19,127 nucleotides of DNA from a virus: the UHGV virus genome UHGV-0215688; one strand, 5' to 3'. The notes under the pieces were generated by a model that worked only from the letters and a program-made list of their open reading frames with translations, made no database searches and was not told where the DNA came from. Both the position numbers and the translations under genes were made by a program. Below are positions 686 to 14,748 of this stretch, piece by piece. Positions within the stretch are counted from its first letter, which is position 1. The number at the start of each line of letters is the position of its first letter.

Positions 686-853
686 TTACGCGTTTGACTC
701 AGGTTCGGTGAACGCTCCCTCTTCATAAATCCATCCGATTCCACATGGAATTCCGTCTATTTTAACAACCTTAAAATCATCAAAAATATGACCTTCACCA
801 TCCCATATAACAACATTAACAACTATTCCATCTGTAATTAATGCATATCTCAT
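686..853 (-). CDS. Small hypothetical protein (55 aa) translationally coupled to the tail fibre gene
   Basis: ORF track gives 686..874. The ATG at 851-853 overlaps the fibre TGA stop (ATGA) and has GGAGG 7 nt upstream, so the likely product starts [22 protein letters not shown]. Visibly AT-rich compared with the fibre gene. Confidence 0.5.
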
Positions 854-1776
854 GCAAATTCCTCCACAAGACAAATACCATCAGCACCTTCACCACCATA
901 AAAACGCGTGGAGAAGACCTGCGTGTCATATGCGCCAGCGCCGCCGCCGCCAGGGACTAATGCTTTCGCAATTATCGGTGAAGATACAGTACACTGCCCC
1001 GCTCTTCGGCTGCCACCCCAAAAGCTTGAACCGCCGTACCCATTAAGGAATCTGGTATTACTTTGGCCATCTCCGCCATCTCCGCCGGCTAGATTTACAT
1101 CACCACCAGACCCGGCAACTCCAACGCCGCCTGATGCATATACAGTGGAAGCAGTGGACGGGTTTCCGCCTGTGGCAACCATCCCGCTAAATGTTGAGTT
1201 ACCGCCTTTTGTTGCCTCAGTGCCGCCGGCACCGATAACCACGGCAAAGTTTGTGATATCAGCCACGTTGAACCATTTGATACCTGTAGCGCCTGCAGCC
1301 CCCCCCGCACCGGAAAAGTTATCGGTTGGGGCACCACTATTAAAAGCGCCACCTCCGCCACCACCTCCTCCCGTTAGAGTTACTTTGATGCGCTTCGTCA
1401 GCGGGTTTAGCGTTACTGTTTTTGATGAGGTGATCCACTGCTCGGCAATCTTCCTACCTACGTATCCGTTGGTATCTCCCAAATCAAGGTTTGCGAGAGC
1501 CGTTTTCACCGTGCCATCCGATTTGATATCGCCAAACGGATTCTTGCGGCTTAACAGCAGAGCACGAAGCGCGGTAAGCAACTGGTCGTGCCGCGCCTTC
1601 TCCAGACTGGCACCAGATGCCTCAACAACGCTACAAAGTTCTTCCTGCAACATGTCAAAGTAGTCATCATCCAGATCGGTGGCAGGCGTGCCAGTCTGGG
1701 GGTTACCACGGGTAAAACCGTTCTTACCCGCGCCGAACTTATCCTTCTGCGCGGTTTTCGTGTCTATACGATGCAT
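850..1776 (-). CDS. Tail fibre protein with conserved N-terminal domain and glycine-rich C-terminal region
   Basis: 308 aa, last gene of the tail operon directly after the gp48-like gene. N-terminus [58 protein letters not shown] resembles side-tail-fibre N-termini of Mu/e14-type prophages, as recalled. C-terminal half is Gly-rich with an octa-glycine run. GGAG RBS 6 nt upstream of the ATG. Confidence 0.75.
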
Positions 1777-1779
1777 GGA

Positions 1780-2364
1780 TTACTCCGGATATTTAAAAAT
1801 TACGTAGGTATGCGACGGGCAGAGTTTGTTAAGCACACACTCGACAACGGTGTCGCCCCAGATACGCAGTGCGGAATCACAGGGATCGCCACATGTCATC
1901 CAGGTGGTGTTGGTGGTGGTTGGCATGTTGACATGCCAGTAATACCGCCATTCCGGCGCATTCACCGCGTCAGTACAGGCCGATGAGCAGGTGAACGTGC
2001 TTTTGTCGTATCGCGTGATGGTGGCATCTGGTCTGCCCAGGGCAGCAAGCTGTGCAAGATAAAAATCCTCGTTGATGCCGCCCGCCAGGTTAACCTTCGC
2101 ATCCAGCCGTTGCTGACGCTGGCGAAGGGTCTGCGTTCCCGCCGGAATACATTCATCCGGCAGACCGCACAGACGCTCCCAGCGGTTTATCAGTTCAGTG
2201 GTGGTGCGCGGATCCAGCTCCCGCATCAGGGCATCCGCACGCTGATGAACACGGGTTAATGACGGTGCCGCACCGGCAATCGCCGGATCGCTGGCTGACC
2301 ACGCCGGACCGGGCGGCAACAGTGCCGATAACAGGCGGATGTAATCATCGTTTGTCACGTCCAT
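1780..2364 (-). CDS. Mu gp48-like tail/baseplate protein (YmfQ/DUF2313-like)
   Basis: 194 aa, immediately between the baseplate J-like gene and the fibre gene, which is the gp48 position in Mu-like tail modules. Start overlaps the J stop by about 10 nt. Confidence 0.7.
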
Positions 2365-3413
2365 GAAATCGTCCCCAGTACCGCCAGTTCGTTTTTCGCA
2401 ATGGAGATATTGTCCACCGGTGCAAGCAACTGATGGCTGTATTCCCCGTTCGCACCGGAAATCGCCTCACTGATACGCGACACCTTCAGTTCTCCCTGCG
2501 GATAACCATCACGCAGCAGGAACGAACGCAACTCCGCGGTGATGGCAGCCCGTATTTCCGGTGTATCCGGCGTCACGCGGATATGAAAATCCACCGTATG
2601 TGCCACCGGCCTGAACACATACAAGTCAGAACCTGCCACCGGGGCCAGTGGCCCGATATGTTGTATTGCCGCCGTTTCCGTTGATTCTTCCGGAATGGGA
2701 TTAATCAGGTCACTGCTGGCAATCATCACACCGACAGTTCCCGTTCCCATCCAGTGACGGTATGTCCATGCGCGGGTAATGCCGGGCACTTCTTTAGCCC
2801 AGACGACATAGTCCCCGTCAGCCCCGCCCTGCGGCGTCCAGTAATACCGCTCAATGACGCGGGCGCGCCACGTTTCCAGATCTTCAGTATCGAATCCGCC
2901 AGTCAGGGTATCTGCAACACCGGAAGACGGCAGACCATTCACCGGCGTGACTAGGATTAATGCCGTACCGTCGTCAGCGTTACCGACCGCGCCTGCATTT
3001 GAGCAAGTGATCGGCACACGCAGGACACCACCGGAGCTGGTTGCATCGGCAGTTGCCGTGTACTGAACCAGGTCATCGCGCTGAATCACGCTCCCGGCAG
3101 TCACCTTCAGGCCATCGCTGACACCTTCCCAGCGCATATACCCGCTGGCAGCCGTGGCCCCCTTGCGCGGACACCGTTTCATCGCAGCATGTCGCGCCAG
3201 CCAGGACTCATCGCACAGGTCAGGCAGCATATTCATTGCCAGATAATCGATGTACCCGTAGACCGTATGCAGCGCCGCCGCATACACCTTTGCCCGCACG
3301 TCTTCATCCATGCGCCGGAGCGTGTTGCTGACGTCCAGCCTGGCGAATAAATCGTTACGGAGCATACTGATATTTTCTGCCAGCGTCGGGCGCTGAAATT
3401 CACTGTCCGCCAT
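2355..3413 (-). CDS. Baseplate J-like protein (Mu gp47-like)
   Basis: 352 aa; size and position between the gp46-like and gp48-like genes match the baseplate wedge J family. Start ATG at 3411-3413 overlaps the upstream stop. Confidence 0.8.
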
Positions 3414-3828
3414 GCGTTATCGCACTCCACAGATCATCAAAAGAAATCATTACCGGTCCGTCACGACGCCAGAGAGTGATACTGTTACCCAGTTCATTAA
3501 TCCCGGTACGGCGGATATCCAGATCAATACGGGACACCACGCCGTCATCAATCATCCATTGCAGGCATTCGCGGATATATCCCCTTACCGTCTGCACCAG
3601 CTGATTGGTCAGTTTGCTGCGCTGAAGCAGCCACAGTCGGGAGCCGTAACGGTCATTCTGTACCGCAGGCCAGGTATCCCCCCACCATCCCATCGGGACG
3701 TCGGCGTTGTCATCAGGCTCCGCCCGCCGCCAGGTAAACAGGGAAATCACCACGGCGCGGGTCAGCGGATCCAGCGGTGCGCTGGCGCAGGTGCGTTTAC
3801 CGTTCACCGTCAGCCACAGTTCCATCAT
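3400..3828 (-). CDS. Mu gp46-like baseplate protein
   Basis: 142 aa between the gp45-like and J-like genes. Tandem ATG ATG at 3828-3823 overlaps the gp45 TGA; the second ATG has better GGAGG spacing. Confidence 0.7.
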   Translation of the reverse strand: MMELWLTVNGKRTCASAPLDPLTRAVVISLFTWRRAEPDDNADVPMGWWGDTWPAVQNDRYGSRLWLLQRSKLTNQLVQTVRGYIRECLQWMIDDGVVSRIDLDIRRTGINELGNSITLWRRDGPVMISFDDLWSAITHGGQ

Positions 3829-4373
3829 GCCTCCATCGCTTTATCAGGTTTGTCGGTGTTACTGCCCTGACCGTTCTCTCTGTGACGATGCCCGTTATAG
3901 GCAAGCCGCATCGCTGACATGGTGGTGCCGCCGGAGTCGCACAGGTCTTTCACCTGTCCGGTCACTTCCAGGTCCATTTCAAAACGTGCTTTAGGTGAAT
4001 TGCGAAACGTGATCGTTTTACCTGCACCGTCCACCACGATCCCCTCCCGGGTCAGCGTCACGGACTGCCCCTGATCGTCATAGACAGCCACCTCACCCGT
4101 CTGCAGCCCTTTCAGGCGGTAGCGCCGGTCCGACACCGTAACAACCACCGCATGAGAACGGTCGCCATCCGGAAACAACACCACCGCTTCCGCACCGCTG
4201 TTTGCCCTTGCGGTAAAACCGTAGGGTTCAAGATGTTCAACCCCGGCTTTGGGTTCACCGGCAATCAGGGACACATCCACGGTCTGACATTTCGTGGCGG
4301 CACTGATGCTTTTCACCACGGCCCGCCCAATCAGGCCGAGGAGTTGTCGCTGCATGGCTTCAATCGTCCTCAT
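3825..4373 (-). CDS. Baseplate assembly protein V-like spike (Mu gp45-like)
   Basis: 182 aa; N-terminal region (GLIGRAVVKSI...TVDVSLIAGEPKAGVEHLEPYGFT) is typical of gpV/gp45 baseplate spike proteins. The ATG shares one nucleotide with the stop of the P-like gene (TGATG). Confidence 0.75.
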   Translation of the reverse strand: MRTIEAMQRQLLGLIGRAVVKSISAATKCQTVDVSLIAGEPKAGVEHLEPYGFTARANSGAEAVVLFPDGDRSHAVVVTVSDRRYRLKGLQTGEVAVYDDQGQSVTLTREGIVVDGAGKTITFRNSPKARFEMDLEVTGQVKDLCDSGGTTMSAMRLAYNGHRHRENGQGSNTDKPDKAMEA

Positions 4374-5452
4374 CAGAACGGGTCCTCCTGTACTCTGGCT
4401 TTTTTCTTTTTCCGCGCGCCGGGGGCTTCGGGTTCAGGCAGATAAGCATCAGGTGGGCCGACACGGATTTCCGTCAGGGTGCCGTTCTGGTCCTGAGTAA
4501 ACGTGACTTCCGAAACAAGCAGTTCGGTATTGTCGAAACCACAGACCGGATCAAAGACAATCACCCGCTGGTTGGGCTGCCACAGCGTACCGTTACACTG
4601 TCGCCAGCCCTGCACCACATAGGTGGTTTCATCCGTCCGCGCCGCCCGTTGTCTGGCTTCAAAGTCCGCACGGGCAATACAGCCTGCCCCCGTAGCCTGC
4701 CCTGTCTGCCTGATATACATCGGACGGTAACGGGCAATAAATGCGTCCTCTGTGCGGGCCCGCAGCGCGGTGGTGGTGGCCTCACCGAAATCATCGTCGT
4801 TTCCGGCACGCTGCCCCGCCACCTGGTAAACAGAAAACCGCTCCCGGATACTCTTCTCCGTATCGCAGGAAAGGATGTTTTCCCCGAGTACCAGCGCAGT
4901 ATGTGCCCGAGTTGAGCCAATACCGCCAATCACCAGCCTGCCGTGCGGGTCGTCGTAAGCCAGTGCCTGCTGCTGACCGAGTATTTTGTTGATTACCTCA
5001 ATCACCGTTTCACCGTGATCAGGCTGAACATCAGGAATAACACCCGACGGCGCACCGCTGTTCACCACCTCAATGCCGAAAGGCGCAGCAAGCGCCTGCG
5101 CAATCTGCACCAGCGAGCGTCCGTTAAACTGTGTCGGTTCGGCTGCACAGTCAATCAGGTCAGCCGTCAGACTACGTCCGACAATACCGGTGCTGACCGA
5201 ACGGGAATCGTAACGAACGGGCGTCGCCTCCACCCAGCCGGTGATCACCAGCTCATCACCAATCAGCACTTCCACTTTTGAACCGTTTTTAATGCGCGGC
5301 TGAAGCGTGGTGATACCCTCATCTCCCGGCCACTGGCGGGTGATCTCCACACTGAAATCCCGCGCCAGCCGTTCAATACCGGCACCGATGCGCACCGATG
5401 TCCAGCCATTCCACTCCCGGCCATTTACCCGTAGCGTGACATTGTCGTTCAT
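4373..5452 (-). CDS. Mu gpP-like tail protein (late control D-like baseplate hub)
   Basis: 359 aa following the N gene with an ATGA overlap; N-terminus MNDNVTLRVNGREWNGWTSVRIGAGIERLARDF matches Mu P/gpD-like tail proteins as recalled. Confidence 0.75.
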   Translation of the reverse strand: MNDNVTLRVNGREWNGWTSVRIGAGIERLARDFSVEITRQWPGDEGITTLQPRIKNGSKVEVLIGDELVITGWVEATPVRYDSRSVSTGIVGRSLTADLIDCAAEPTQFNGRSLVQIAQALAAPFGIEVVNSGAPSGVIPDVQPDHGETVIEVINKILGQQQALAYDDPHGRLVIGGIGSTRAHTALVLGENILSCDTEKSIRERFSVYQVAGQRAGNDDDFGEATTTALRARTEDAFIARYRPMYIRQTGQATGAGCIARADFEARQRAARTDETTYVVQGWRQCNGTLWQPNQRVIVFDPVCGFDNTELLVSEVTFTQDQNGTLTEIRVGPPDAYLPEPEAPGARKKKKARVQEDPF

Positions 5453-6777
5453 TGCACTGGCACCTTCAGAGGGATCACCGGCACAAAGCCGGGATGCGTA
5501 ATGGCATTACGCCGGATAATGTCCGCGTCACGCGCCGCGTTATCAAACCAGGTCGCCGCCAGCACCAGCGCGGGTAAAACCTCATCCGGTGTGCGCTGAA
5601 TGATCCGTGCAGACTGTTCAAGGCGCGTGTTGATATCCGCATTCAGATCTGCTTTCACCCGGCGCAGCGCCAGAAACAGCGCATCACTGGTTGTACGGGA
5701 CAACTCCTTATCAATTGCCGTATTCAGTGTGTCGCGAATGTCAGTCAGTTCTTCCCACGTCGGCAGGTCAACCGTGTTTTTCACCGCCGGTGCATTGTTC
5801 AGTGCCGGATGCGTGACGGAAGGCCAGCCAGTGCTCTGCGCGGGTGTTGTTGCCTGCCCCACTGCGGCATTCTGCATCACCGCGGAAGTTGTTGGCGCAG
5901 GCAATCGGGTGACGGCATACGCCGCTTCGCTGATTGCGGTCGTACGAAGGGTGCTGGCAACCACGTTACGCTGCTGCGTCGCCGTGGCGGTGGTTTTACT
6001 GTCCGTTTTCCAGACGCCGCGCGGTTGCAGATCGCTGCCGAGGCTGACACCGGAAAGCGTTTTGATCATGGTGACCAGGTCGCTGGCGTTACCATAAAGG
6101 CGTTTCCCGGTACGCCACATTTTCTGCACCTGCTCAACGAAATTTTTGCCTGACGATGGCGGCGGCAGAAGTACCGAGATATCCCCCTGCAACAGCCTGG
6201 CGGCATCCGATACGGCAGAATCCACCACTTTCATCGCATCAGAAACATACCCCAGCATTATGCTGGCATTACCGATAACGTCGTTCTGCACGAAATCCGC
6301 AACACCATCGATACTGAAACCGCTGAAGCTGTCACTGATGCAGTCATCCAGTGCAGAACAGGATGACATCAGCGTCTGCGCCGTCGCCGCACCTGATGTG
6401 GGGTAAGAGAGTTCTCCTGCTTCGACAAACTTCAGGTCAAAGCGGACAATACGCCCTTCACTTTTCGATGTGCTGACCCGAACTTCCCCGTCAACACAGA
6501 CTTTCAGCTCACCATATGTCGGGTGGACAAGCGTGCCTGGACCGGGTTTATTCAGCGCGTCAATCAGGCGATCGCGCTGGTCAAAGCAGTCATCTCCCAC
6601 CACATAAGCTGTGATGGACGGGCGGAAAGTGATTTTCCCCAGGTCTTCGGTATAGGGTTTGTCGCGGTTTGGGTATTCATGCGTTTCAACCCGACGTCCT
6701 ACCGGGGCCCCTTCATCTTCTACCTTGAACGGAACGCCGCGAAACGACGCTTCAACCAGTCTGTCTTTCCACGCCAT
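5449..6777 (-). CDS. DNA circularization protein N-like tail protein (Mu gpN-like)
   Basis: N-terminal MAWKDRLVEASFRGVPFKVEDEG...HEYPNRDKPYTEDLGK resembles the Mu N N-terminal domain. Listed with the in-frame ATG at 6775-6777; the ORF track starts at an in-frame TTG at 6789. Sits directly downstream of the tape measure and moron in Mu-like order. Confidence 0.8.
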   Translation of the reverse strand: MAWKDRLVEASFRGVPFKVEDEGAPVGRRVETHEYPNRDKPYTEDLGKITFRPSITAYVVGDDCFDQRDRLIDALNKPGPGTLVHPTYGELKVCVDGEVRVSTSKSEGRIVRFDLKFVEAGELSYPTSGAATAQTLMSSCSALDDCISDSFSGFSIDGVADFVQNDVIGNASIMLGYVSDAMKVVDSAVSDAARLLQGDISVLLPPPSSGKNFVEQVQKMWRTGKRLYGNASDLVTMIKTLSGVSLGSDLQPRGVWKTDSKTTATATQQRNVVASTLRTTAISEAAYAVTRLPAPTTSAVMQNAAVGQATTPAQSTGWPSVTHPALNNAPAVKNTVDLPTWEELTDIRDTLNTAIDKELSRTTSDALFLALRRVKADLNADINTRLEQSARIIQRTPDEVLPALVLAATWFDNAARDADIIRRNAITHPGFVPVIPLKVPVQ

Positions 6778-6805
6778 TGTCTGCACCAATATGATTTGTT
6801 ATAAG
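6777..6805 (+). promoter_or_regulatory. Sigma70-like promoter for the moron gene (-35 TTGTCT, 17-nt spacer, extended -10 TGTTATAAG)
   Basis: TTGTCT at 6777-6782, 17-nt spacer, TG at 6797-6798, then TATAAG at 6800-6805; about 65 nt upstream of the moron ATG. Overlaps the start of the divergent N gene. Confidence 0.4.
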
Positions 6806-6869
6806 CTACTCTGTTTCAGACGCTTCTTTCGAAGCGACAGAAAACATTTACCTTTAAGGAGAGGTATAA

Positions 6870-7307
6870 ATGGAAATGTTTTTGCCGTTAATACTGGGTT
6901 TGTTGCTAGCCGTTTTCATAGGACGGTGGGCTTATAAAAAAGAAAAGACCAAGCCCAGAAAAATAATGGCTGCTCTTCTCGGTGCTGTTTTTGGATTCTT
7001 CGCACCACTGATAATCGCAGCGTTTGTTATGACTCCCCCAGAAAAAGAAAAAACTAAAGAGGAGCTTGTTATGGCAAAGCTCACACGCTCTTTGGATGGT
7101 TGTCCACTTGATATGAAAGATCGCGTGAAAGAATCAATGAATGATCCCGATAGTTTTGAATGTATCGAAACTAACGTTATACGTCGTAAAGATGATTACG
7201 TCATGATCATGCAGTTCCGTGGCAAAAACCAATTAGGGGGAATGGTTAAAAATGTCGCCAAGGCGGAATATGACTCAGAGGGAAATTTCGCAAGGTTCAT
7301 CAATTAA
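6870..7307 (+). CDS. Moron: 145-aa two-helix membrane protein with a roughly 90-aa C-terminal soluble domain (candidate superinfection exclusion protein)
   Basis: Only convincing plus-strand gene in the window. Strong RBS AAGGAGAGG 5 nt before the ATG. Two hydrophobic helices (about residues 3-19 and 33-54) separated by a Lys-rich loop YKKEKTKPRK, followed by a domain with two Cys. Strongly AT-rich against neighbours; hairpin immediately after the stop. Confidence 0.75.
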   Translation: MEMFLPLILGLLLAVFIGRWAYKKEKTKPRKIMAALLGAVFGFFAPLIIAAFVMTPPEKEKTKEELVMAKLTRSLDGCPLDMKDRVKESMNDPDSFECIETNVIRRKDDYVMIMQFRGKNQLGGMVKNVAKAEYDSEGNFARFIN

Positions 7308-7311
7308 AAAC

Positions 7312-7334
7312 AATGGGAGGTTTACCCTCCCATT
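7312..7334. terminator. Perfect 9-bp stem / 5-nt loop hairpin between the convergent moron and tape-measure genes
   Basis: aatgggagg (7312-7320), loop tttac, cctcccatt (7326-7334). The tape-measure stop codon (7322-7324) lies in the loop. A T-run follows only on the minus-strand side (GTTTTTAA). Confidence 0.5.
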
Positions 7335-9097
7335 CCAGTCCTCCCTATCCTTGTGTAACCTACATCATGGTTAACATCTATACCTGTGGAACGGCTATCA
7401 GTAACACTCATTCCTTGTGGGGCACCTTTGAACTCAACGGTGATGGATCCTTTCGGTTGAGTCGCCGTTCCCTGTTTGATCTGATAAGGGTTATATCCTG
7501 AACTAGCCACTCCTGTACCATACGCGCCGTAACCACCGGCTCCCCACTGCGCGGCGTTTGCGGCAGCGACCGTATCACTGGCACCATCTGTAAACCACTC
7601 GATAATAGGCTTGAGCTTGTCCCACATATCCTGAAACCACTGCACAACTGGGCCCCAGTTGTTAATGATCATTCCCATAGGAGTCCAGGCGAAAACAGTT
7701 TTGAATAGCTCCCAGCCAGCCTCAAAGTATGGTTTTATGCTTCCCCACATTTCTTTAAAGAATGGCCCAACGACATCCCAATTTGCTATCAGCACCCCGG
7801 CAGCCAACGCAATCCCCCTGATAATTAAACCAATAGGTGAAGCACTAGCGACAAAGGACATTATTTTTAATGCCATACTGGCACCAGCAACGGCAACTCG
7901 AAGTGCGACAAATCCGGCTGCTGCACCCAGCAATGCTCTAACCATGGCAGGATTACGTGAAACAAAGTCAGTTGCTTTTTGAATCAGGGGCATCAACCCC
8001 GCGGCGCTGGCATTAATTTGTGGCAGCAATGCATTCCCAAGCGCCACACCAGCGTGAGTAGCCTGATTTCGTAGAAGCTGTAACTGGTTTGCAGTCGTTG
8101 CTGCACGGGCCTCATACTCTTTTTGCATTGAGCCGGTATACTGCGATGCATCACCAACCATATTGAAGTTTTTCTTCAACAGATCGAGGTTGGTTAACAG
8201 AGGGGCAATTGCGCCAATGGACTCTTTACCAAAAAGAACATTCAATGCCTTCGGTTGTCTGGCCTTATCAAGTTTTGAGATGCTTTCAAGGACCTTCAAC
8301 ATCGTTCCCTGGGCATCCTTTTGCATATCTGAAGCAAGTTTTTTGGAATTAAACCCGAGGAACTGGAACGCCTCCTGCTGCTGTTTAGAACCTCCCGTAA
8401 TTGCCAGCATAAAGTTTTTAATGCCAGTTGCGGCAATTTCCTGTTCAACGCCCACACCTGCAAGTGTTGCGCCCAACGCCGCAATCTGACCCGACGCAAT
8501 ACCAGCAACCTCCCCAAGCGGACCTATGCGGGTAACAATGTCAGAAATCTGCTGGGCGCTGGCAGCCCCGTTGTTTGAAAGATAGTTAATCTTATCTGCA
8601 AGCGAAACCACCTCACCCTGAGTCATTTTGAAAGAGGTTCGCCACTTAGCCATCATCTCGCCGGACTGATCCGCTGATTGATCAAAGGCGACGCCCATTT
8701 TCAGTGCGTCTTCTGCAAATTGCTTCAGGTCTTCCCTTGCAATACCAGCCTGGCCACCTGCGGCTACGAGTTTCGCAATATCATTCGCGGCCATAGGCAG
8801 ACGATCCGACATTTTTAAGATGTCTTCACTCATCTCGGAAAACTGCTGTGGCGTATCGAAATCGACAACTTTACGAACATCAGCCATCTGCGATTCAAAA
8901 TCTATTGCCGCTTTGGCCCCAGCAATAAACGGCGCTGCAAATGCCCCGCCGCCGATTAAATCCCCCATAGAAAAATCAGCTAGACCGCTGGATTTGATCC
9001 CTTTTTGAAACCCTTTGATTTTCTTCTGCATGGAGGACAGCGCAGGAGAAAGCTTATCAACTCCTGTAATCAGGGCTTTAAGTTCAAACTCAGCCAT
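7322..9097 (-). CDS. Tail tape measure protein
   Basis: 591 aa, Ala/Gly-rich with a helical N-terminal part and a Trp-rich C-terminal part (WDVVGPFFKEMWGSIKPYFEAGWELFKTVFAW...). Located directly after the frameshifted chaperone, the canonical tape-measure position. ATG at 9095-9097. Confidence 0.9.
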   Translation of the reverse strand: MAEFELKALITGVDKLSPALSSMQKKIKGFQKGIKSSGLADFSMGDLIGGGAFAAPFIAGAKAAIDFESQMADVRKVVDFDTPQQFSEMSEDILKMSDRLPMAANDIAKLVAAGGQAGIAREDLKQFAEDALKMGVAFDQSADQSGEMMAKWRTSFKMTQGEVVSLADKINYLSNNGAASAQQISDIVTRIGPLGEVAGIASGQIAALGATLAGVGVEQEIAATGIKNFMLAITGGSKQQQEAFQFLGFNSKKLASDMQKDAQGTMLKVLESISKLDKARQPKALNVLFGKESIGAIAPLLTNLDLLKKNFNMVGDASQYTGSMQKEYEARAATTANQLQLLRNQATHAGVALGNALLPQINASAAGLMPLIQKATDFVSRNPAMVRALLGAAAGFVALRVAVAGASMALKIMSFVASASPIGLIIRGIALAAGVLIANWDVVGPFFKEMWGSIKPYFEAGWELFKTVFAWTPMGMIINNWGPVVQWFQDMWDKLKPIIEWFTDGASDTVAAANAAQWGAGGYGAYGTGVASSGYNPYQIKQGTATQPKGSITVEFKGAPQGMSVTDSRSTGIDVNHDVGYTRIGRTGMGG

Positions 9098-9099
9098 TT

Positions 9100-9255
9100 T
9101 TATTGTTCCTGGTTGATGCGGTTGGCCTGCTCAGCAAGTAAACCCAGAACTGAAAACGGTTCGTTGAGCATTTCCAGGGGATTGATGTGCCAGTATTTGG
9201 CGCAATCAAAATAATGATTCAGGAGTTGTCCTGCGCTGAGTTCCCGAGGAAAAAA
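9100..9255 (-). other. Programmed -1 frameshift site and extension of the tail assembly chaperone (G/GT-type fusion)
   Basis: Slippery heptamer T TTT TTC on the minus strand (plus 9249-9255) inside the chaperone ORF. The -1 frame stays open for 49 codons (PRELSAGQLLNHYFDCAKYW...RINQEQ) to TAA at 9100-9102, 2 nt before the tape-measure ATG. No 0-frame gene fills 9100-9218. Confidence 0.6.
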
Positions 9256-9506
9256 CCGACAATATCCCAACTGATAGTGTTCAGATCTGAGGGTTGCATT
9301 TCATCAACAGAACTTGGTGGGATGCTCGCCAAACGAGAAATGTATTTCGCAATTACCCCTGCATCCATTTTCACGCCTGCATCGCCGCTGGCCGTGTAAG
9401 GGAAACCAAGTTCACGAACATCTTTCCCCGTAGGCTCCCGCAGCTCAAGAACGTGGATATCTTCCCCATGGGCTCGAACAGGTTTGCTTAGTTTAATTTC
9501 CTTCAT
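9219..9506 (-). CDS. Tail assembly chaperone (0-frame product)
   Basis: 95 aa between the tube and tape-measure genes; carries the slippery site near its 3' end. ATG shares one nucleotide with the tube stop (TAATG). Confidence 0.7.
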   Translation of the reverse strand: MKEIKLSKPVRAHGEDIHVLELREPTGKDVRELGFPYTASGDAGVKMDAGVIAKYISRLASIPPSSVDEMQPSDLNTISWDIVGFFLGNSAQDNS

Positions 9507-9862
9507 TACTGGTAATCCCCTTCTTCACCGTGGAACTCAAGGTCGACCGTGCCTTCTTCGGCATTATGGTTCGCTTCGCCGTGCAGCCAGGCAGACGACA
9601 GTACATAGACCTGACCGTTCGCCAGCTCGGCAGTGATGGTCATCTCATCAGACGAGGTGATTTTGCTCACCGGAAAATTCTTCGGCACCTTGAAAGTCCC
9701 TTTGACATAAGGCGCACGGTGAGTTTCCTTGCGGTCCACTGAACCGTCCAGGCCGATGATGTCATCATTGACTGTCCTGTTCATGGGCACCTCAATGCCG
9801 CCGGTCAGCGATAGCTGCTGACCGTCAATTTTGAAATAACAGGTTCCACCGATACGGGCCAT
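9506..9862 (-). CDS. Tail tube protein (Mu gpM-like)
   Basis: 118 aa immediately after the sheath gene (TAATG overlap) with GAGGAG RBS; size and position are typical of myovirus tube proteins. Confidence 0.75.
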   Translation of the reverse strand: MARIGGTCYFKIDGQQLSLTGGIEVPMNRTVNDDIIGLDGSVDRKETHRAPYVKGTFKVPKNFPVSKITSSDEMTITAELANGQVYVLSSAWLHGEANHNAEEGTVDLEFHGEEGDYQ

Positions 9863-11358
9863 TATGCAGACTCCTCTGAATACTGAAGACGGAACTGGTT
9901 AACCACGGCAAAGACACGCAACTGGTTAACATAGTCAGGCGGGAACAGCGTGTTCAGGCGGTTCGGATCACTGGCATCACGCTCCACAACCAGGTACTGC
10001 TTAAACAGTTCGTAGTTTTCCACGATCCCCGCACGCTCAAGCTGACGGTAGGTTGCCAGCAGTTCCCCTTTGATCACCGCCGGGGTGACAATCGCCTGAC
10101 CTGGACCAAAGCGGGTACCGTCGCTGGCAAGCTTGTGACGCCCGTACTTACTGGTAATGACGGATTTCAGTTTGCGCAGCACATACGCGCTGGTATGCAG
10201 CGTCTCGCTGTCGAGGTAGCTGTTATCCGCAACACCGTAAGCGTTTTTCCTGTACGTGGTGACATCACGCTGAATGCGCAGCACCCCGCTTTCGACATAC
10301 GCCGTTGCCACGCCATGAGACAGCAGGGTCTGTTGCTCGGTCATCGTGAACCGTTTCCCCTTCGGCGCAGGCAGCATACCCACCAGCTCACCGGTCTGCG
10401 TGGGACGTGCCGGATCGTTGCGAATAAACACCGCTGCGCGGGCGGTACGGCTTGCCGCCAGTTCGTCGGCAGGCGTCTGGGTCTCTTTTTCGTACCCCGC
10501 CAGGGTAATGTGCTGCTGGTTAAACTGGTCACCTGCGGTCACCAGTTCTGACAGCGTGCCGATCTTTGCCGTATACACATGACCATACAGCTGACGCGCA
10601 TAGCTCCAGCGACCGCTGGTATCGTTCATCTCGGTCACCAGCGTGTTAACGGAGGCCGTGTCGTTGAACGGCAGGCCGATATAATCAAACGGCTCATCCG
10701 CCATTGCAGCGACCGCGCCGGTGAGAACCGGAGCGCCCGCTCCGGAGGTACCCGTCGCCACGGCAATCTGTACGCCCGCAGGCAGCACTTCGCCCCCACC
10801 GAAGCCGTAGTAATTGAGGCTGACAGGAATTTCATTCCCGCAAAGCCCCTTATGACGCGCGGTCAGTGTGACCACGCCTGCCGAAGATGAGGCCGTAAAC
10901 GGCAGGGCCGGAACGGCATTGATGGCATCCTGAATACTGCTGGCAATCGTCGTGACGTTATCGCCGTTGGTCACCGGTGCCTGCACGCGGGTACGTCCCA
11001 CATAAACATTCACCGTGCCGGTTTCGGTTGCTGCTCCGGTCACCGTCAGCGTAACCGTTGCCGCCGCGCCTGTGGCTTCCGGAACGGCAATCACATACAG
11101 CTCGCCAAACGGGTCGGTCTGGCGATAAGCCTCGACCATACGCGCCAGCTGACTTCCCGCACCACAAATCTGGCGTGCATAGTCTGCCGACGGCATCAGC
11201 ACCAGACTGTTGGCAACAATCTCTGCACCGTTATTGGCGTGACCAATCAGCAACGACGCTCCGCTGTCCTGTGCAGTATTAGCCGCCTGGTTATCCATTT
11301 CCGCATAAAACAGCGGAACCAGCGTATTCGACGGAATGGTGTTAAAGCTTATCGTCAT
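9862..11358 (-). CDS. Contractile tail sheath protein (Mu gpL-like)
   Basis: 498 aa, first large tail gene after the neck genes and followed by the tube gene; AAGGTGA RBS upstream of ATG at 11356-11358. Confidence 0.85.
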   Translation of the reverse strand: MTISFNTIPSNTLVPLFYAEMDNQAANTAQDSGASLLIGHANNGAEIVANSLVLMPSADYARQICGAGSQLARMVEAYRQTDPFGELYVIAVPEATGAAATVTLTVTGAATETGTVNVYVGRTRVQAPVTNGDNVTTIASSIQDAINAVPALPFTASSSAGVVTLTARHKGLCGNEIPVSLNYYGFGGGEVLPAGVQIAVATGTSGAGAPVLTGAVAAMADEPFDYIGLPFNDTASVNTLVTEMNDTSGRWSYARQLYGHVYTAKIGTLSELVTAGDQFNQQHITLAGYEKETQTPADELAASRTARAAVFIRNDPARPTQTGELVGMLPAPKGKRFTMTEQQTLLSHGVATAYVESGVLRIQRDVTTYRKNAYGVADNSYLDSETLHTSAYVLRKLKSVITSKYGRHKLASDGTRFGPGQAIVTPAVIKGELLATYRQLERAGIVENYELFKQYLVVERDASDPNRLNTLFPPDYVNQLRVFAVVNQFRLQYSEESA

Positions 11359-11524
11359 CGGTATTCACCTTTTCATTCACGCGCCGGATATCACCCGCTG
11401 CTTCACGGCGCAGCCAGTAGTTGTTCTCGTCAACATTTCGCCCTTCGGTGGGCAAAAGGTCACCGCGGGCAGGGTCAGGCACTGACCGCCCTTTAACAGG
11501 TTTGACAAACATGAGGATCCTCAT
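11342..11524 (-). CDS. Small Mu gp38-like protein (DUF2635-like)
   Basis: 60 aa directly before the sheath gene, as in Mu-like tail modules. Start ATG overlaps the upstream stop (ATGA) inside a 14-bp palindrome. Confidence 0.55.
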   Translation of the reverse strand: MRILMFVKPVKGRSVPDPARGDLLPTEGRNVDENNYWLRREAAGDIRRVNEKVNTDDDKL

Positions 11525-12081
11525 GAAGGAAGGGTTATTTCGGTGTGATGTTCGATATCGCCGTCAGGCCCGTTACCGGGATCGAGATAATCAACATCAA
11601 TCGCCAGCGTTTGCAGTTCATCCAGACTGTTCAGCTCATCCTGCTGGCGGGTATCGTCTTCGGTCAGCTCGCTGATGACCGAAAAATCGAACTGATAAAT
11701 CAGCTCATGACGATTCAGATCCAGCAGCGTGCCGCCGTCATAGGTAATCGGGTTACCGCACGCCTCCGGGTTCCAGCCCAGCAGGGCCTTAAAGAGCATC
11801 TGCCGGACATCGTCCACCACATCATACGAAGCAAACTGACCGCGCTCATCACGCCCGTTACTCAGTATGACAACCACGGAGAAGCCCTCTTTCAGCTCCT
11901 GCCAGTAGTCGGTCTGGCTTTTGTTTTCTCCCGGAGAGTCATCACCCGGTACCACATATGCCGCCGGGAGCTTCAGCTTTCCGACCTCCGGCAGATTTTT
12001 GAACTGGGCCGCGCCTGCAACCCGGTTTTCAAAATACGGACAGCGGGCACGCAGCGCAGCAATAACAGGCGTCAGTTTCAT
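11521..12081 (-). CDS. Mu gp37-like tail completion/terminator-type protein
   Basis: 186 aa between the gp10-like and gp38-like genes with ATGA overlaps at both ends; acidic C-terminal third (ELTEDDTRQQDELNSLDELQ...). Confidence 0.55.
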   Translation of the reverse strand: MKLTPVIAALRARCPYFENRVAGAAQFKNLPEVGKLKLPAAYVVPGDDSPGENKSQTDYWQELKEGFSVVVILSNGRDERGQFASYDVVDDVRQMLFKALLGWNPEACGNPITYDGGTLLDLNRHELIYQFDFSVISELTEDDTRQQDELNSLDELQTLAIDVDYLDPGNGPDGDIEHHTEITLPS

Positions 12082-12584
12082 CTGTGTCGTCGCTCCGGCT
12101 TCAGTGATTTACGCAATTCCCGCGCCAGAAAATAGCGTGTCCAGCTGCGGTTCTTTTCAAGAGTTTCCACCATGAAGTTATTACGTGGAGCCAGTCGCCA
12201 GCCGCTGCCACCGGATGCACCACGATGATGACTACGACGACGTTTTGCTCCTCCCCGGACACCAAAAAATAGAAACGCCGGATAGAAGTCACCAGAGATC
12301 ATCCGGTTCCCCTTCCCGTTGCGCTGGTTAGGGGCTATACGTGCCATAAAACCGGGGCGATGTTTACTGGCTCTGGGTACCATATAACCAATCGAACGTG
12401 CCAGGCGTCCGGTCTGATAACCGGGGTTTTCACCCGGTGCCGACCGCGCACGGCGCATCACCAGCCGACGGGCATCACGCATATGACGCTGCCCAATCGT
12501 GACAAACGCCCGCCGGACACGGGCGCGGTTAAAGCGCATCTCCGTGGGCTGCTGAACATCAACGTGCAAAAAGGGAGTCGCCAT
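12078..12584 (-). CDS. HK97 gp10-family neck/tail-completion protein
   Basis: 168 aa, very basic, with the PGENPGYQTGRLARSIGY motif resembling the gp10-family signature (P..P...TG.LRRSI); GGAGG RBS 5 nt upstream of the ATG. Confidence 0.7.
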   Translation of the reverse strand: MATPFLHVDVQQPTEMRFNRARVRRAFVTIGQRHMRDARRLVMRRARSAPGENPGYQTGRLARSIGYMVPRASKHRPGFMARIAPNQRNGKGNRMISGDFYPAFLFFGVRGGAKRRRSHHRGASGGSGWRLAPRNNFMVETLEKNRSWTRYFLARELRKSLKPERRHR

Positions 12585-12969
12585 TGCTGCCTCCGTGACT
12601 CTGCGTAAATTCGCCCAGCTCTGTACACTCCAGCAACAGAAAGCGCCGCGCCCCGTTCAGATCACGCTGACGTTTCACCCGGTACACACTGTCATCACAG
12701 ACCACCTCATAATCAGCAGTGATCCCCCGGCGGTAACGAATGGTGATGTAATGGGTGATGGCGTCCCCGGTCTGCGCGGTTTCCTGCCAGGTGGTGGCAC
12801 TGGTCTGGATAACCTTCGCCCATGTCCGGAACGCAACCGGGTATTGAGGCTCCACGCCAAAGTTATCAGCGGGCATATCCACCCGCTGGCGGATCAGGAC
12901 GCGTTTATTCAGTTCACCGGGGTCCGGCAGAATGTAGGTTGCGCTGGTCTGCGCCTGACTAATTTTCAT
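12559..12969 (-). CDS. Head closure / head-tail joining protein
   Basis: 136 aa following the connector gene (ATGA overlap); pattern fits the head-tail joining family (VIQTSATTWQE...YITIRYRRGIT...YRVKRQRDLNGARRFLLLEC). Confidence 0.65.
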   Translation of the reverse strand: MKISQAQTSATYILPDPGELNKRVLIRQRVDMPADNFGVEPQYPVAFRTWAKVIQTSATTWQETAQTGDAITHYITIRYRRGITADYEVVCDDSVYRVKRQRDLNGARRFLLLECTELGEFTQSHGGSNGDSLFAR

Positions 12970-13289
12970 TGCTGAAAGTACCTGTACGGGCCGACAAGCC
13001 AGCCAAAACTCTGCGGCATGTCGAGTTTCTCCACTTCCGTAACCGACGAGCGGTTTTCGTAAAAATGGCTGATAAGCATCAGCATCCCCAGACGAATATC
13101 ATCCGGCAGGTGCAGCCCGTCCGGATCGCTGTCCGGAATGGTGTCATCCGGTGCATAGAGCTTCCGGTTCAGATACGTTTCCGTCCGCTTTTGTGCCGCA
13201 CAGGCCAGCAGTTGCAGATGGCGGTCATCAGCATCGAAATCCTCATCCAGCCGGAGTTGGGCTTTAATCTCTTCCATTGTCAGAAGCAT
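12966..13289 (-). CDS. gp6-like head-tail connector (DNA-packaging/adaptor) protein
   Basis: 107 aa; N-terminus MEEIKAQLRLDEDFDADD...YLNRKL is typical of gp6-like connector proteins; placed after the major capsid block. Confidence 0.65.
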   Translation of the reverse strand: MLLTMEEIKAQLRLDEDFDADDRHLQLLACAAQKRTETYLNRKLYAPDDTIPDSDPDGLHLPDDIRLGMLMLISHFYENRSSVTEVEKLDMPQSFGWLVGPYRYFQQ

Positions 13290-13291
13290 AC

Positions 13292-13492
13292 TCAGCCCTC
13301 TTTACTGGTCGTGGCTTTTTTCTCTTTTGTCGCTTTACTGCTTTTTGCACTGGTTCCGCGCTCTGCTAACCCGGCCTGAAGTGCAATCTCCTGCACCCGG
13401 ACAGGAAGCTCCCCGTCGTCATACTCACCGGCCCGAATGACCTCAACACGCATACCGTCCGGTGACCATTTCAGATCTTGTTTCAGGATCAT
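13292..13492 (-). CDS. Small hypothetical head-module protein
   Basis: 66 aa with a Lys/Ser/Thr-rich tail, between major capsid and connector genes; no family recognised. Confidence 0.4.
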   Translation of the reverse strand: MILKQDLKWSPDGMRVEVIRAGEYDDGELPVRVQEIALQAGLAERGTSAKSSKATKEKKATTSKEG

Positions 13493-13511
13493 GATTCTTC
13501 ACCCGTCAGAA

Positions 13512-13537
13512 CAGGGGGAGCGGTTCCGCGCCCCCTG
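13512..13537. terminator. GC-rich imperfect hairpin just downstream of the major capsid gene (possible attenuator/RNA-stabilising stem)
   Basis: caggggg (13512-13518) pairs with ccccctg (13531-13537), with further inner pairing; lies in the 50-nt gap after the capsid stop at 13543. No clean U-tract follows on the minus strand. Confidence 0.3.
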
Positions 13538-13542
13538 AATGA

Positions 13543-14748
13543 TTACGCCGCTGCAATCTTCAGCAGTTTGATGGCCTGCGAATCGACCAGCATGCCGCCG
13601 GTGCGTTTGGTGGTATAAAAACCGACAAACGGTTTATTGGTGTACGGGTCACGCAGAATGCGGGTGCCGATACGGTCAACGATGGTGTAACCCCGTTTGA
13701 AGTTACCAAATGCAATGGCTTTCGCATCAGCGGCGATATCCGGCATCTGTTCGTTTTCAGCGATACCGTAACCCGACAGAGAGGACGGCTGCCCCAGATC
13801 CAGCCCCGGACGCCACAGATAGTTACCCTCGCTGTCTTTCAGCAGACGGATGGCAAACAGGCTATTGTTGTTCATCATGAACTTCGCGCCGGTGCGGTGT
13901 GCCTTACGCAGCGTGTAAATCAGTTTGATAATGGCGTCTGCGGTCACCGCCGTCGCGGCGCCGGATACAATATGCTGAAGTTTGCCGAACGCCCGGACCT
14001 TATCGGTTTCATCCGTGGATTCATACGCCAGGAACCCTTTCGGCTTCTTGGTACCATCGCCGGTGGTAAAGGCAATTTCTTCCTGTTCGGCAAATTCGGT
14101 TGCCAGCTCGCTGTTGATCCATGCTTCCACGTTGAAAAAGGCATCATCCAGCATTTTCTGGGTGGCCTGCGGGTTACCGTAGATTTCCCCCATGAAAGGT
14201 TCAATCAGGCCCAGTTTTGAGGTGGCAGTCTGGGAGCGCGCGTCAGTCTCGCCAACCCATCCAGAAGCCGTGCCGCCCAGATTCACCAGTTTTTTGTAGT
14301 CGGAGCCACCAACGGTGATCACCGTGGCTTCCTGGCGCATCACCACTTCATCTTTCAGCAGGGTGAGAATGTTGCGATCCAGTGCTTCCGGCACGGCATA
14401 GCCGCCGTCTTCATCGGTGCCCACCTGTAATGCCTTGCGCTCCAGATCGCGCAGACCATCTTCACGGCCTTTACGCAGGAAGCCCACAAACGCTTCTTTA
14501 TGCTCGGTGGCCAGTTTATTTTGCGCACCACCTGCCGGACGTTTCAGCTCAAGCAGCTCTTTTTCAAGATCGCTTTTGAGGTTTTCCAGCTCGCTGAGTT
14601 TCCCGTTCAGGGTTTCCACCTGCCCGGCAAGCTTGCCTTTTTCCTGCTCAATCGCATCCACGCGCTTGTCGTTCTTTGCTTTGAAGTCGTCAAACTTCTG
14701 CTGCAGCTCCTGCGCGACCTGTTCGACATCTTTAATATCTACCGCCAT
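13543..14748 (-). CDS. Major capsid protein, HK97 family, with N-terminal delta (scaffold-like) domain
   Basis: 401 aa; about 100-aa N-terminal predicted coiled coil (EQVAQELQQKFDDFKAKNDKRVDAIEQEKGKL...) followed by a capsid domain. Directly downstream of the prohead protease, with no separate scaffold gene. AGGAGA RBS. Confidence 0.9.
   Translation of the reverse strand: MAVDIKDVEQVAQELQQKFDDFKAKNDKRVDAIEQEKGKLAGQVETLNGKLSELENLKSDLEKELLELKRPAGGAQNKLATEHKEAFVGFLRKGREDGLRDLERKALQVGTDEDGGYAVPEALDRNILTLLKDEVVMRQEATVITVGGSDYKKLVNLGGTASGWVGETDARSQTATSKLGLIEPFMGEIYGNPQATQKMLDDAFFNVEAWINSELATEFAEQEEIAFTTGDGTKKPKGFLAYESTDETDKVRAFGKLQHIVSGAATAVTADAIIKLIYTLRKAHRTGAKFMMNNNSLFAIRLLKDSEGNYLWRPGLDLGQPSSLSGYGIAENEQMPDIAADAKAIAFGNFKRGYTIVDRIGTRILRDPYTNKPFVGFYTTKRTGGMLVDSQAIKLLKIAAA

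Follow-up and report, generated by a model that had tools for sequence, protein, structure and literature searches.

Tail assembly chaperones bind the tape-measure protein, and those of phages lambda (G/GT) and P2 (E/E') are made with a programmed -1 frameshift. Among the Shigella serotype-converting phages, SfIV has a chaperone (ORF12) and a tape measure (ORF13) that are less than 50% identical to those of SfV, while the other genes of the tail module are conserved (Jakhetia et al. 2013, PMC3851460). The original 'moron', gene 15 of HK97, is a superinfection-exclusion gene (Juhala et al. 2000; Cumby et al. 2012; reviewed in PMC3594210); it lies beside the tape-measure gene, and its product gp15, which resembles YebO, blocks DNA entry in a manner that depends on the tail of the incoming phage (PMC3594210). 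By the criteria of Juhala and Hendrix, a moron is an extra gene between neighbours that are adjacent in relatives, deviates in composition, and has its own promoter and its own terminator.

We analyzed a stretch of 19,127 nucleotides (UHGV virus genome UHGV-0215688), here called the window, which is an SfV-like Escherichia coli prophage, that is, a temperate myovirus with a Mu-type tail and an HK97-type head. Its gene order (TerS, TerL, portal, protease, capsid, and further on sheath, tube, chaperone, tape measure, N, P and gp45-48) is collinear with the SfV-like myoviruses. The closest sequence is the prophage of E. coli CUWW06, with 98.9% identity to the window and 100% across 6778-9016. Positions 5400-11400 align to SfV, SfI, SfII and SfIV at 95-98% identity across 54-59% of their length, and outside the block described below the window is 95-98% identical to SfI, SfII, SfIV, SfV and SKA5. 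Across the whole window we found no Rfam families and no tRNAs. The features that matter here are the following.

5449..6777, minus strand: gene N, Mu N-like DNA circularisation/tail protein (PF07157, E = 4.5e-33), the conserved left flank.
6778..7321, plus strand: moron cassette of a 92-bp upstream region with Shine-Dalgarno sequence AAGGAG, a 145-aa ORF and a terminator hairpin; GC 0.41.
6870..7307, plus strand: moron ORF, 145 aa, with two N-terminal transmembrane helices and a C-terminal alpha/beta domain of ~85 aa.
7312..7334, no strand assigned: hairpin from a terminator scan, 9-bp stem with a GGGAGG..CCTCCC core, between the converging stops of the moron and the tape measure.
7322..9097, minus strand: tail tape-measure protein gene, 591 aa (PF10145, E = 1.3e-42; phrog_28, E = 5e-126), between the chaperone and the baseplate genes.
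9100..9506, minus strand: tail assembly chaperone pair in the style of E/E' or G/GT (PF10109, Phage_TAC_7, E = 4.3e-16).
9506..9862, minus strand: tail tube gene (PF10618), the conserved right flank.

Our reading is that the low-GC block between N and the tube gene is a recombination mosaic within the tail operon of an SfV-like E. coli prophage, bounded at gene borders and built of at least three independently assorting modules; we give it a probability of about 0.85. The block is ordinary phage mosaicism. Mosaicism at gene borders, swaps of chaperone and tape-measure alleles, and morons are all textbook features of temperate phages, and earlier work had singled out the chaperone and tape measure as what varies in the SfV-group tail, so the result itself matters little; what the natural recombinants described below add is that the chaperone and the tape-measure body form one co-adapted unit, with the adjacent moron free of it.

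The block stands out in base composition. GC content over 6800-9506 is 0.471, against a mean of 0.558 (sd 0.017, minimum 0.502) for non-overlapping blocks of the same size; it ranks 38th lowest among 16,421 same-size blocks, every lower-ranked one of which overlaps it, and differs from the remainder of the window at p = 8e-18 (chi-square). A maximum-likelihood search for two changepoints, blind to coordinates, places them at 6776 and 9525; GC is 0.469 between them and 0.561 beyond. GC3 is 0.40-0.49 in the genes of the block and 0.53-0.66 elsewhere, as the individual genes show (GC, then GC3).

Moron: 0.409, 0.404
Tape measure: 0.489, 0.465
Chaperone: 0.490, 0.469
N: 0.564, 0.611
P: 0.581, 0.619
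Tube: 0.535, 0.639
Sheath: 0.581, 0.653

The shift is seen in GC3 and is absent from GC1 and GC2, so amino-acid composition does not explain it. A leave-one-out codon index measured against the backbone is 0.52-0.63 in four pieces of the block and 0.72 +/- 0.05 in backbone genes (z = -1.8 to -3.8). Since E. coli has a chromosomal GC of about 50.8%, genes at 49%, as the tape measure and chaperone are, lie close to the host mean; the GC-rich part is the backbone, and the moron alone (41%) is AT-rich in absolute terms. Another low-GC stretch lies at 1-1000.

The composition changepoints coincide with breaks in homology at 6777 and 9505. On the left, SfV, SfIV and SKA5 match the DNA of N at 97-98% identity as far as 6765-6777, and the breakpoint is the N start codon (6777, the RefSeq start). 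On the right, the tube protein is 100% identical to those of the same three phages and the breakpoint is the junction of tube stop and chaperone start (9505/9506), where identity to these phages returns to 95-100%; at the DNA level it jumps at 9501 from 55-60% to 95-98%. Between the two breakpoints SfV, SfIV and SKA5 give either no match or 55-70% identity.

The chaperone and tape-measure genes, with the same breakpoints, also distinguish SfIV from SfI, SfII and SfV, phages of the same family. Compared with SfIV and SfV, the window carries a third allele, type A, which is lower in GC and rare in E. coli: a type A tape measure occurs in 4 of 5,426 complete E. coli genomes, while ~630 have related tape measures. 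Over tape-measure residues 1-427, the window is 100% identical to E. coli HCP8S3_I1 (L004), 92% to Edwardsiella, 86-87% to a diverged metagenomic lineage (L035-37), 71% to LSJC7, 55% to SfIV and 26% to SfV; the chaperone DNA is 100% identical to that of HCP8S3_I1 and 55-60% identical to that of SfV. Phylogenies of sheath, tube and P place the window within a tight cluster of E. coli and Shigella phages (98-100% amino-acid identity). Those of tape measure and chaperone place it with HCP8S3_I1, Edwardsiella, L035 and LSJC7, apart from SfV, SKA5, CUPS SST 5/1 and SfIV, and this incongruence supports horizontal exchange. An earlier note on this DNA had called the block AT-richer than its surroundings, as GC, changepoint fit, GC3 and codon usage all bear out, and its forecast of recombination breakpoints near 6800 and 9500 proves essentially right against SfV, SfIV and SKA5. 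It had also held that congruent tape-measure and sheath trees, or GC and codon usage no different from the rest of the operon, would speak against exchange; the trees are incongruent and the differences are there.

The dip in composition might instead be intrinsic, with GC3 of the tape measure and chaperone lowered by weaker codon selection or fast divergence and no recent transfer involved, an explanation that we regard as quite improbable. The tape measure does have a GC3 0.05-0.18 under that of sheath, tube and P in SfV, SfIV, SKA5, Buttiauxella and metagenomic relatives; SfV-type tape measures lie 5-9 GC3 points below their own flanks, and the tape-measure 3' end is low (0.39-0.55) in all enterobacterial relatives. 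In part the dip is a property of the family rather than a sign of import. In the window, however, it is larger (0.46 versus 0.65), extends over the chaperone, whose GC3 in SfV (0.61) shows no such depression, and has no counterpart in Pseudomonas relatives; moreover, the trees are incongruent, and identity falls from 98-100% to 26-59% at exact gene borders.

On the mosaic reading, the chaperone and the tape-measure body (~7700-9505) would be a rare type A allele brought from a more distant relative into a GC-rich E. coli SfV backbone, probably by homologous recombination at the conserved flanks. The nearest relatives of type A outside E. coli are SfV-like prophages of Edwardsiella and other Enterobacterales with lower-GC backbones. 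The Edwardsiella allele is close to that of the window in composition, with GC3 values of 0.49 and 0.44 in a backbone of 0.54-0.59. When we sought a low-GC, near-identical DNA donor of the type A allele, the best relative from outside E. coli was that of Edwardsiella anguillarum (92% amino-acid identity), and at only 76-90% DNA identity to the window's allele it does not identify a direct donor.

The chaperone consists of a 95-aa ORF (9219-9506) with an extension in the -1 frame to 9100 that ends one codon short of the tape-measure ATG. The overlapping -1 ORF spans 9100-9270, and a slippery heptamer, T_TTT_TTC, lies at 9255-9249 on the minus strand. In its PF10109 domain, its heptamer and a -1 extension ending just before the tape-measure start, the gene resembles lambda G/GT and P2 E/E', with a frameshift that is here predicted from sequence. 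Two ORFs antisense to the tape-measure gene (7659-7982 and 8163-8489, plus strand) were taken to be spurious, since they are low-complexity, Ser/Ala/Pro-rich and opposite a well-supported gene.

Comparison with natural recombinants divides the block into three or more pieces, each assorting independently of the others. From left to right these are the moron cassette (6778-7321), the 3' end of the tape measure (7322 to ~7700), and the tape-measure body with the chaperone (~7700-9505). In HCP8S3_I1 the tape-measure body and chaperone are 99% identical to those of the window, and exactly 6778-7321 is swapped for an unrelated OB-fold gene, the alignment stopping at 6777 and resuming at 7322. The moron cassette can thus be exchanged as a unit. 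E. coli CUPS SST 5/1 and ET5 (L005, L006) show the converse arrangement: their moron is 99.3-99.6% identical to that of the window, yet their tape-measure body and chaperone are of the SfV type. The window is ~100% identical to this pair over 6500-7500 and ~100% identical to HCP8S3_I1 over 7800-9700. The tape-measure gene is itself mosaic, with different nearest relatives for its 3' part and its body: the part from 7322 to ~7700 is 84% identical to HCP8S3_I1, 90% to L005 and 92% to L006, while the body (about 7700-9097) is 99% identical to HCP8S3_I1 and unalignable with L005 and L006. The 3' end would then be a separate mosaic patch, and because it is flanked by stretches near-identical to different E. 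coli relatives, crossovers on both sides of it are suggested.

Could the chaperone, tape measure and moron nevertheless be one cassette from one donor, kept together through an action of the moron on the tape measure that belongs to it? The three genes adjoin and share a low GC, changepoint analysis returns them as a single segment, and the moron family and type A are found together in three E. coli genomes and in L035-37. We consider this very improbable. The same tape measure and chaperone accompany another moron in HCP8S3_I1, and the same moron accompanies another tape-measure body and chaperone in CUPS SST 5/1 and ET5. Moron homologues of 63-88% identity occupy the same site in seven further lineages, of which six have an SfV-type tape measure and one the type of the window; counted over the other lineages, an SfV-type tape measure accompanies the moron family in seven of eight. 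The moron, with a GC content of 0.41, stands apart from the tape measure and chaperone at 0.49, the OB-fold moron occurs with several tape-measure types, and the identical tape measure is found with another moron or without any. The three genomes that combine the moron with type A each do so in a different chromosomal context. Together, the combinations in HCP8S3_I1, CUPS SST 5/1, ET5 and the further lineages indicate no cognate pairing between the moron and this particular tape measure.

The earlier note's picture of a horizontally exchanged cassette in a conserved tail operon is accordingly borne out in part: exchange is supported by the breakpoints and incongruent trees, and the notion of a single co-acquired unit that includes the moron fails on HCP8S3_I1, CUPS SST 5/1 and ET5. 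Its expectation that a moron acting on tape-measure-dependent DNA entry would be co-inherited with a cognate tape measure is contradicted by the same genomes and by the prevalence of SfV-type tape measures beside the moron, although the moron may still act at that step. The sample is small, each module being present in 4-6 E. coli genomes, and loci found through the moron are ascertained on it, which leaves room for a weak statistical link of the moron to one type of tape measure; type A and the moron family are indeed found together in two divergent backbones, those of the window and L035-37. As to the order of events, the moron may have been replaced in HCP8S3_I1 or the tape measure in CUPS SST 5/1 and ET5, or the reverse.

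Co-inheritance is confined to the chaperone and the tape-measure body. In all 14 loci compared, the type of the chaperone agrees with that of the tape measure, a co-variation that fits the known binding of chaperone to tape measure; the two would travel together because a chaperone must fit its tape measure.

The third module, at 6778-7321, would be a classical moron. It lies in a hotspot flanked by the stop of the tape-measure gene and the start of N, and its direction of transcription is opposite to that of the late operon. In SfV, SfIV and LSJC7 the tape measure adjoins N and the site is empty, with a gap of 24-46 bp in SfV and SfIV; in the window the gap is 544 bp and holds the 145-aa ORF, an extra gene in the sense of Juhala and Hendrix. 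Its composition deviates from a backbone with GC 0.56-0.58 and GC3 0.61-0.65, and homologues at other loci have GC3 of 0.25-0.43. A GC-rich hairpin follows directly on the stop codon, and its stem is kept in all seven aligned moron-bearing loci. Its T-run is on the minus strand only, so that it reads as the terminator of the tape-measure gene; it probably ends the moron transcript too, at an efficiency that we infer. Upstream, the single sigma-70-like match (TTTCCA-18-TATGAT at 6766-6795) is weak and no better than those in shuffled sequences, and alignment of the upstream regions reveals a TATA(A/G)N motif overlapping the region of the N translation start. An inverted repeat at 6841-6882, over the Shine-Dalgarno sequence and start codon of the moron, was considered as a regulatory hairpin and rejected (z -1.8, not kept in five homologous loci). 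We found no direct repeats flanking the moron, and thus no signature of transposition.

The gene resembles HK97 gene 15 in being a small inner-membrane protein gene of deviant GC within a tail operon, next to the tape measure. It differs in position, lying between the tape measure and N rather than between the chaperone and tape measure, and in being antisense and in a contractile-tailed phage. Pfam and NCBIfam scans of the moron show no YebO-like family, so that, going by the review's description of gp15, a relationship in sequence between the two is not to be expected.

The junction of tape measure and N is a hotspot, occupied across phages by four unrelated envelope-targeted ORFs (counts require >= 80% of the query to be covered, in 5,426 E. 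coli genomes).

The 145-aa protein with two transmembrane helices: 5 of 5,426.
An OB-fold protein (PF12869; PHROG 8545, 'superinfection exclusion Sie-like', E = 3e-41): 38 of 5,426.
A 170-aa signal-peptide protein of SKA5, GC 0.31: 84 of 5,426.
A 175-aa membrane-anchored ORF of Edwardsiella.

The OB-fold protein, which has an N-terminal membrane anchor, is encoded at the identical site and in the same orientation in HCP8S3_I1 and at least 37 other complete genomes. It is unrelated to the moron of the window in sequence and fold, and 'Sie-like' is an annotation label. A single site with at least four unrelated envelope cargo genes, in a prophage family common in E. coli and Shigella, makes a handy place to seek exclusion or defence genes against contractile-tailed phages.

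The moron product is predicted by AlphaFold with a mean pLDDT of 87, as helices 5-24, 28-53, 63-72 and 80-88 plus four strands. The loop between the transmembrane helices has eight K/R and one E (KKEKTKPRK), and the protein is probably anchored in the inner membrane with its C-terminal domain in the periplasm and its N-terminus, too, predicted to lie on the outer side of the membrane, a topology suggested by the model; it would presumably be made in the lysogen. Neither Pfam nor NCBIfam gives a match. PHROG matches are confined to families of unassigned function, among them phrog_3403, and those in BFVD to uncharacterised membrane proteins and lipoproteins of phages. PDB sequences, searched with a profile, gave chance matches only (E >= 0.038), and Foldseek against the PDB returned none at E <= 0.001, with weak NTF2-like and Nudix fragments only. 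In PADLOC no match is significant, the best being the candidate PDC-M38B (E 0.0044).

A superinfection-exclusion role is plausible for this protein, and superinfection exclusion or defence at the cell envelope is the function that we tentatively rank first. Going further, the tape measure/N junction could be a dedicated landing site for envelope anti-phage genes and the 145-aa protein the founder of a new superinfection-exclusion family that blocks delivery of the incoming genome at the inner membrane; this we think possible but doubtful. We put at about even odds that the protein is no exclusion or defence factor at all, and that it serves instead in lysogenic conversion or at the envelope in some other way (stress tolerance, host interaction) or is a non-essential accessory of lysis or assembly. 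It has no significant similarity to characterised Sie or defence families in PHROG, PADLOC or Foldseek searches of the PDB, and its domain belongs to a very large family (5,083 cluster representatives at E <= 0.001, clustered at 50% identity), most of it not obviously phage-borne; members are often fused to a zinc ribbon in the cytoplasm, which points to a general role at the envelope or in signalling. Its orientation against the late operon, however, argues against a virion or late function, and its site is shared with the Sie-like gene. All four distant homologues with a readable context, moreover, lie in lysogeny modules or defence islands: one in a prophage between a repressor-like HTH gene and the integrase, one adjoining an integrase, one in an island that also carries AbiJ-AAA and type I restriction-modification genes, and one beside Abi_C/AbiJ genes. 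These contexts tie a large extracytoplasmic domain family, for which Pfam has no model, to lysogeny modules of prophages and to defence islands.

Every long ORF of the window except one lies on the minus strand. The genes, in order, are:

minus strand, first in gene order: terminase small and large subunits, portal, protease and capsid
minus strand, after the capsid group: head-tail connector proteins and tail terminator
9862-11358, minus strand: sheath
9506-9862, minus strand: tube
9219-9506, minus strand: chaperone, with a -1 extension to 9100
7322-9097, minus strand: tape measure
6870-7307, plus strand: 145-aa ORF (the moron)
5449-6777, minus strand: N
4373-5452, minus strand: P
minus strand, last in gene order: baseplate genes gp45-48

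By megablast, the window belongs with the SfV group of E. coli/Shigella temperate myoviruses (SfI, SfII, SfIV, SfV and SKA5; 95-98% identity), whose matches cover only 54-59% of 5400-11400. The nearest complete genome, E. coli CUWW06, shares 98.9% identity with the window overall, rising to 100% over 6778-9016.

An earlier note had proposed that the chaperone, tape measure and moron were co-acquired as one AT-rich cassette. The compositional half of that proposal holds: GC is 0.471 in 6800-9506, compared with 0.558 +/- 0.017 for non-overlapping blocks of the same size, and a two-changepoint likelihood search to which no coordinates were supplied returned 6776-9525. The deficit resides in third codon positions, GC1 and GC2 being unremarkable. 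GC3 is 0.40 in the moron, 0.465 in the tape measure and 0.47 in the chaperone, compared with 0.53-0.66 in nearly all backbone genes (the exception is the truncated tail-fibre ORF, 0.485), and a leave-one-out codon index relative to the backbone is 0.52-0.63 for four pieces of the block and 0.72 +/- 0.05 for the backbone. The E. coli chromosome is about 50.8% GC, so the tape measure and chaperone lie near the host average and it is the backbone that is GC-rich; the only truly AT-rich piece of the block is the moron. The dip is in part a family trait: SfV-type tape measures have GC3 5-9 points below that of their own flanks, and a low-GC3 tape-measure 3' end is common to all enterobacterial relatives.

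Comparison with relatives places breakpoints close to the anticipated 6800 and 9500. DNA identity to SfV, SKA5 and SfIV is 97-98% as far as the N start codon (6765-6777) and resumes at 95-100% at the tube/chaperone border (9505/9506); between the two, the DNA is unalignable or 55-70% identical. The P, N, tube and sheath proteins are 97-100% identical to those of SfV, SfIV and SKA5; identity falls to 26-55% in tape-measure residues 1-427 and to 44-59% in the chaperone. With one genome searched per species, the closest tape-measure body outside E. coli is that of Edwardsiella anguillarum (92%; chaperone 88%, sheath 85%), followed by 'Enterobacteriaceae bacterium LSJC7' (71%) and Pseudomonas, Azoarcus and Chromobacterium prophages (57-64%). 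Neighbour-joining trees of tape measure and sheath are discordant: for sheath, tube and P the window falls within a tight E. coli/Shigella cluster, and for tape-measure body and chaperone it groups with E. coli HCP8S3_I1, Edwardsiella, the diverged metagenomic lineage L035 and LSJC7. Because the composition is not normal and the trees are not congruent, these sequences support horizontal exchange of this region within a conserved tail operon, as had been suggested. The Edwardsiella allele has a similar composition (GC3 0.49 and 0.44, its backbone 0.54-0.59), which fits import from a lower-GC lineage within the phage family.

Whether the block is one module or several can be read from natural recombinants that occur in complete E. 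coli genomes.

Identity of the window to three natural recombinants over the moron cassette (6778-7321), the tape-measure 3' end (7322-7700) and the tape-measure body plus chaperone (7701-9505)
HCP8S3_I1: unrelated 150-aa OB-fold gene instead of the moron; 3' end 84%; body and chaperone 99.0%
CUPS SST 5/1: moron 99.6%; 3' end 90%; body and chaperone SfV-type, unalignable
ET5: moron 99.3%; 3' end 92%; body and chaperone SfV-type, unalignable

The window is about 100% identical to CUPS SST 5/1 and ET5 over 6500-7500 and to HCP8S3_I1 over 7800-9700; the tape-measure 3' end in between is a third patch with a separate history. Chaperone type matches tape-measure type in 14 of 14 loci, and together with the recombinants this makes chaperone and tape-measure body the co-inherited functional unit. 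Such co-inheritance is expected, since tail assembly chaperones bind their tape measure. Co-acquisition thus survives for these two and fails for the moron, which the same recombinants show to be an independent passenger. The window's rare chaperone/tape-measure allele (type A) accompanies this moron in the window, CUWW06, 2017.10.01CC and 102651, the OB-fold gene in HCP8S3_I1, a different 175-aa membrane-anchored ORF in Edwardsiella and nothing in LSJC7. Identity of the moron to its homologues follows that of the sequences directly adjoining it (N and the tape-measure 3' end) rather than tape-measure allele class, as simple linkage predicts.

In E. coli 102651 (NZ_CP189662.1), the moron and tape measure lie in a remnant adjoining ssrA; the tape-measure gene is truncated by an IS3-family element, and a heat-resistance island (including ftsH, sHSP20-GI, yfdX1/2, hdeD-GI and kefB-GI) follows. 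In ET5 an IS66-family element splits the tape-measure gene just upstream of the conserved 3' end, next to an intact moron. The chaperone gene carries a canonical -1 slippery heptamer, T_TTT_TTC, at 9255-9249 (minus strand); the -1 frame continues for 49 codons to a stop at 9100, one codon ahead of the tape-measure ATG.

The moron ATG is preceded at 8 nt by a good Shine-Dalgarno sequence (AAGGAG), and the cassette ends in a 9-bp hairpin that is common to the converging tape-measure gene and kept in all homologous loci; a promoter for the cassette was looked for and none established. In the protein, two hydrophobic N-terminal helices flank a strongly basic loop (KKEKTKPRK), which by the positive-inside rule would place the C-terminal domain in the periplasm. 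AlphaFold predicts a helix hairpin together with a compact two-helix, four-strand domain (mean pLDDT 87). Searches of Pfam, NCBIfam and PDB gave no match and PADLOC none that was significant; all family members match phrog_3403 (unknown function). Homologues in Buttiauxella and metagenomic SfV-like prophages are 63-88% identical and all 145 aa long. Every one traced occupies the same site, convergent with the tape-measure gene; six lineages carry SfV-type chaperone and tape measure and one (L035-37) carries type A.

With E <= 0.001 as the cut-off, an exhaustive profile search with the moron domain found representatives of 5,083 clusters (50% identity). The domain is C-terminal in most of them, and a membrane segment precedes it in aligned homologues; a zinc ribbon is N-terminal in a sample of the longest representatives and in two homologues from the first search. 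It spans moron residues about 60-145, is predicted to be extracytoplasmic, has conserved motifs MNDPDS and FRGKNxFGG and is duplicated in some members; the Pfam copy searched contains no model for it. Gene context was readable for four distant homologues: one has an HTH repressor-like gene on one side and an integrase on the other, another adjoins an integrase, a third shares an island with AbiJ-AAA and type I restriction-modification genes, and the last is beside Abi_C/AbiJ genes.

Other phages have different genes at the site between tape measure and N: SKA5 has one for a signal-peptide protein, Edwardsiella has the membrane-anchored ORF, and a third occupant is the OB-fold membrane protein, whose match to PHROG 8545 ('superinfection exclusion Sie-like') scores 3e-41. 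At a minimum of 80% query coverage, the moron is present in 5 of 5,426 complete E. coli genomes, the OB-fold gene in 38 and the SKA5 type in 84. HK97 gp15 offers a precedent: this moron adjoins the tape-measure gene, and its product, located in the inner membrane, blocks DNA entry (PMC3594210). Taking homologue contexts, the Sie-like occupant and this precedent together, our best single guess, a tentative one from context only and short of an even chance, is a role in exclusion or defence. Morons and mosaicism at gene borders are classical (PMC3594210), and divergence of exactly the chaperone and tape-measure genes has been published for SfIV relative to SfI, SfII and SfV (PMC3851460). New here are a third, rare chaperone/tape-measure allele in E. 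coli, a division of the block into three modules and the view of the site as a hotspot for cargo genes; the main value is the lead on the moron family.

Elsewhere in the window, identity to CUWW06 is 100% after rounding in every 500-bp bin over 2001-13000. It falls to 96% near the capsid gene, in the two final bins that were sampled (13001-14000), and the majority of the 213 mismatches in the full alignment must be located beyond 13000, which points to another recombination boundary near there. A second compositionally foreign region is the low-GC stretch 1-1000. Positions 1-136 form the terminal part of an IS1 element, and about 4,960 E. coli genomes have IS1A/IS1B copies that match them at 100% identity. 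The element meets a prophage acyltransferase gene at 136/137; that gene is uninterrupted in CUWW06, so the window derives from a strain closely related to CUWW06 rather than from that genome. The minus-strand ORF at 117-566 (GC 0.41) encodes an Acyl_transf_3 protein (PF01757, E = 7e-14) of which 149 N-terminal aa are left; it is probably a serotype-conversion gene of the O-antigen acetyltransferase type, located at the prophage end and shortened by IS1. The tail-fibre-like ORF at 850-1776 (minus strand; 308 aa, Gly_rich_2 domain) is a RefSeq pseudogene lacking its C-terminus, and, in contrast to 2017.10.01CC, no tail-fibre assembly gene follows it, so the prophage may be defective for adsorption.
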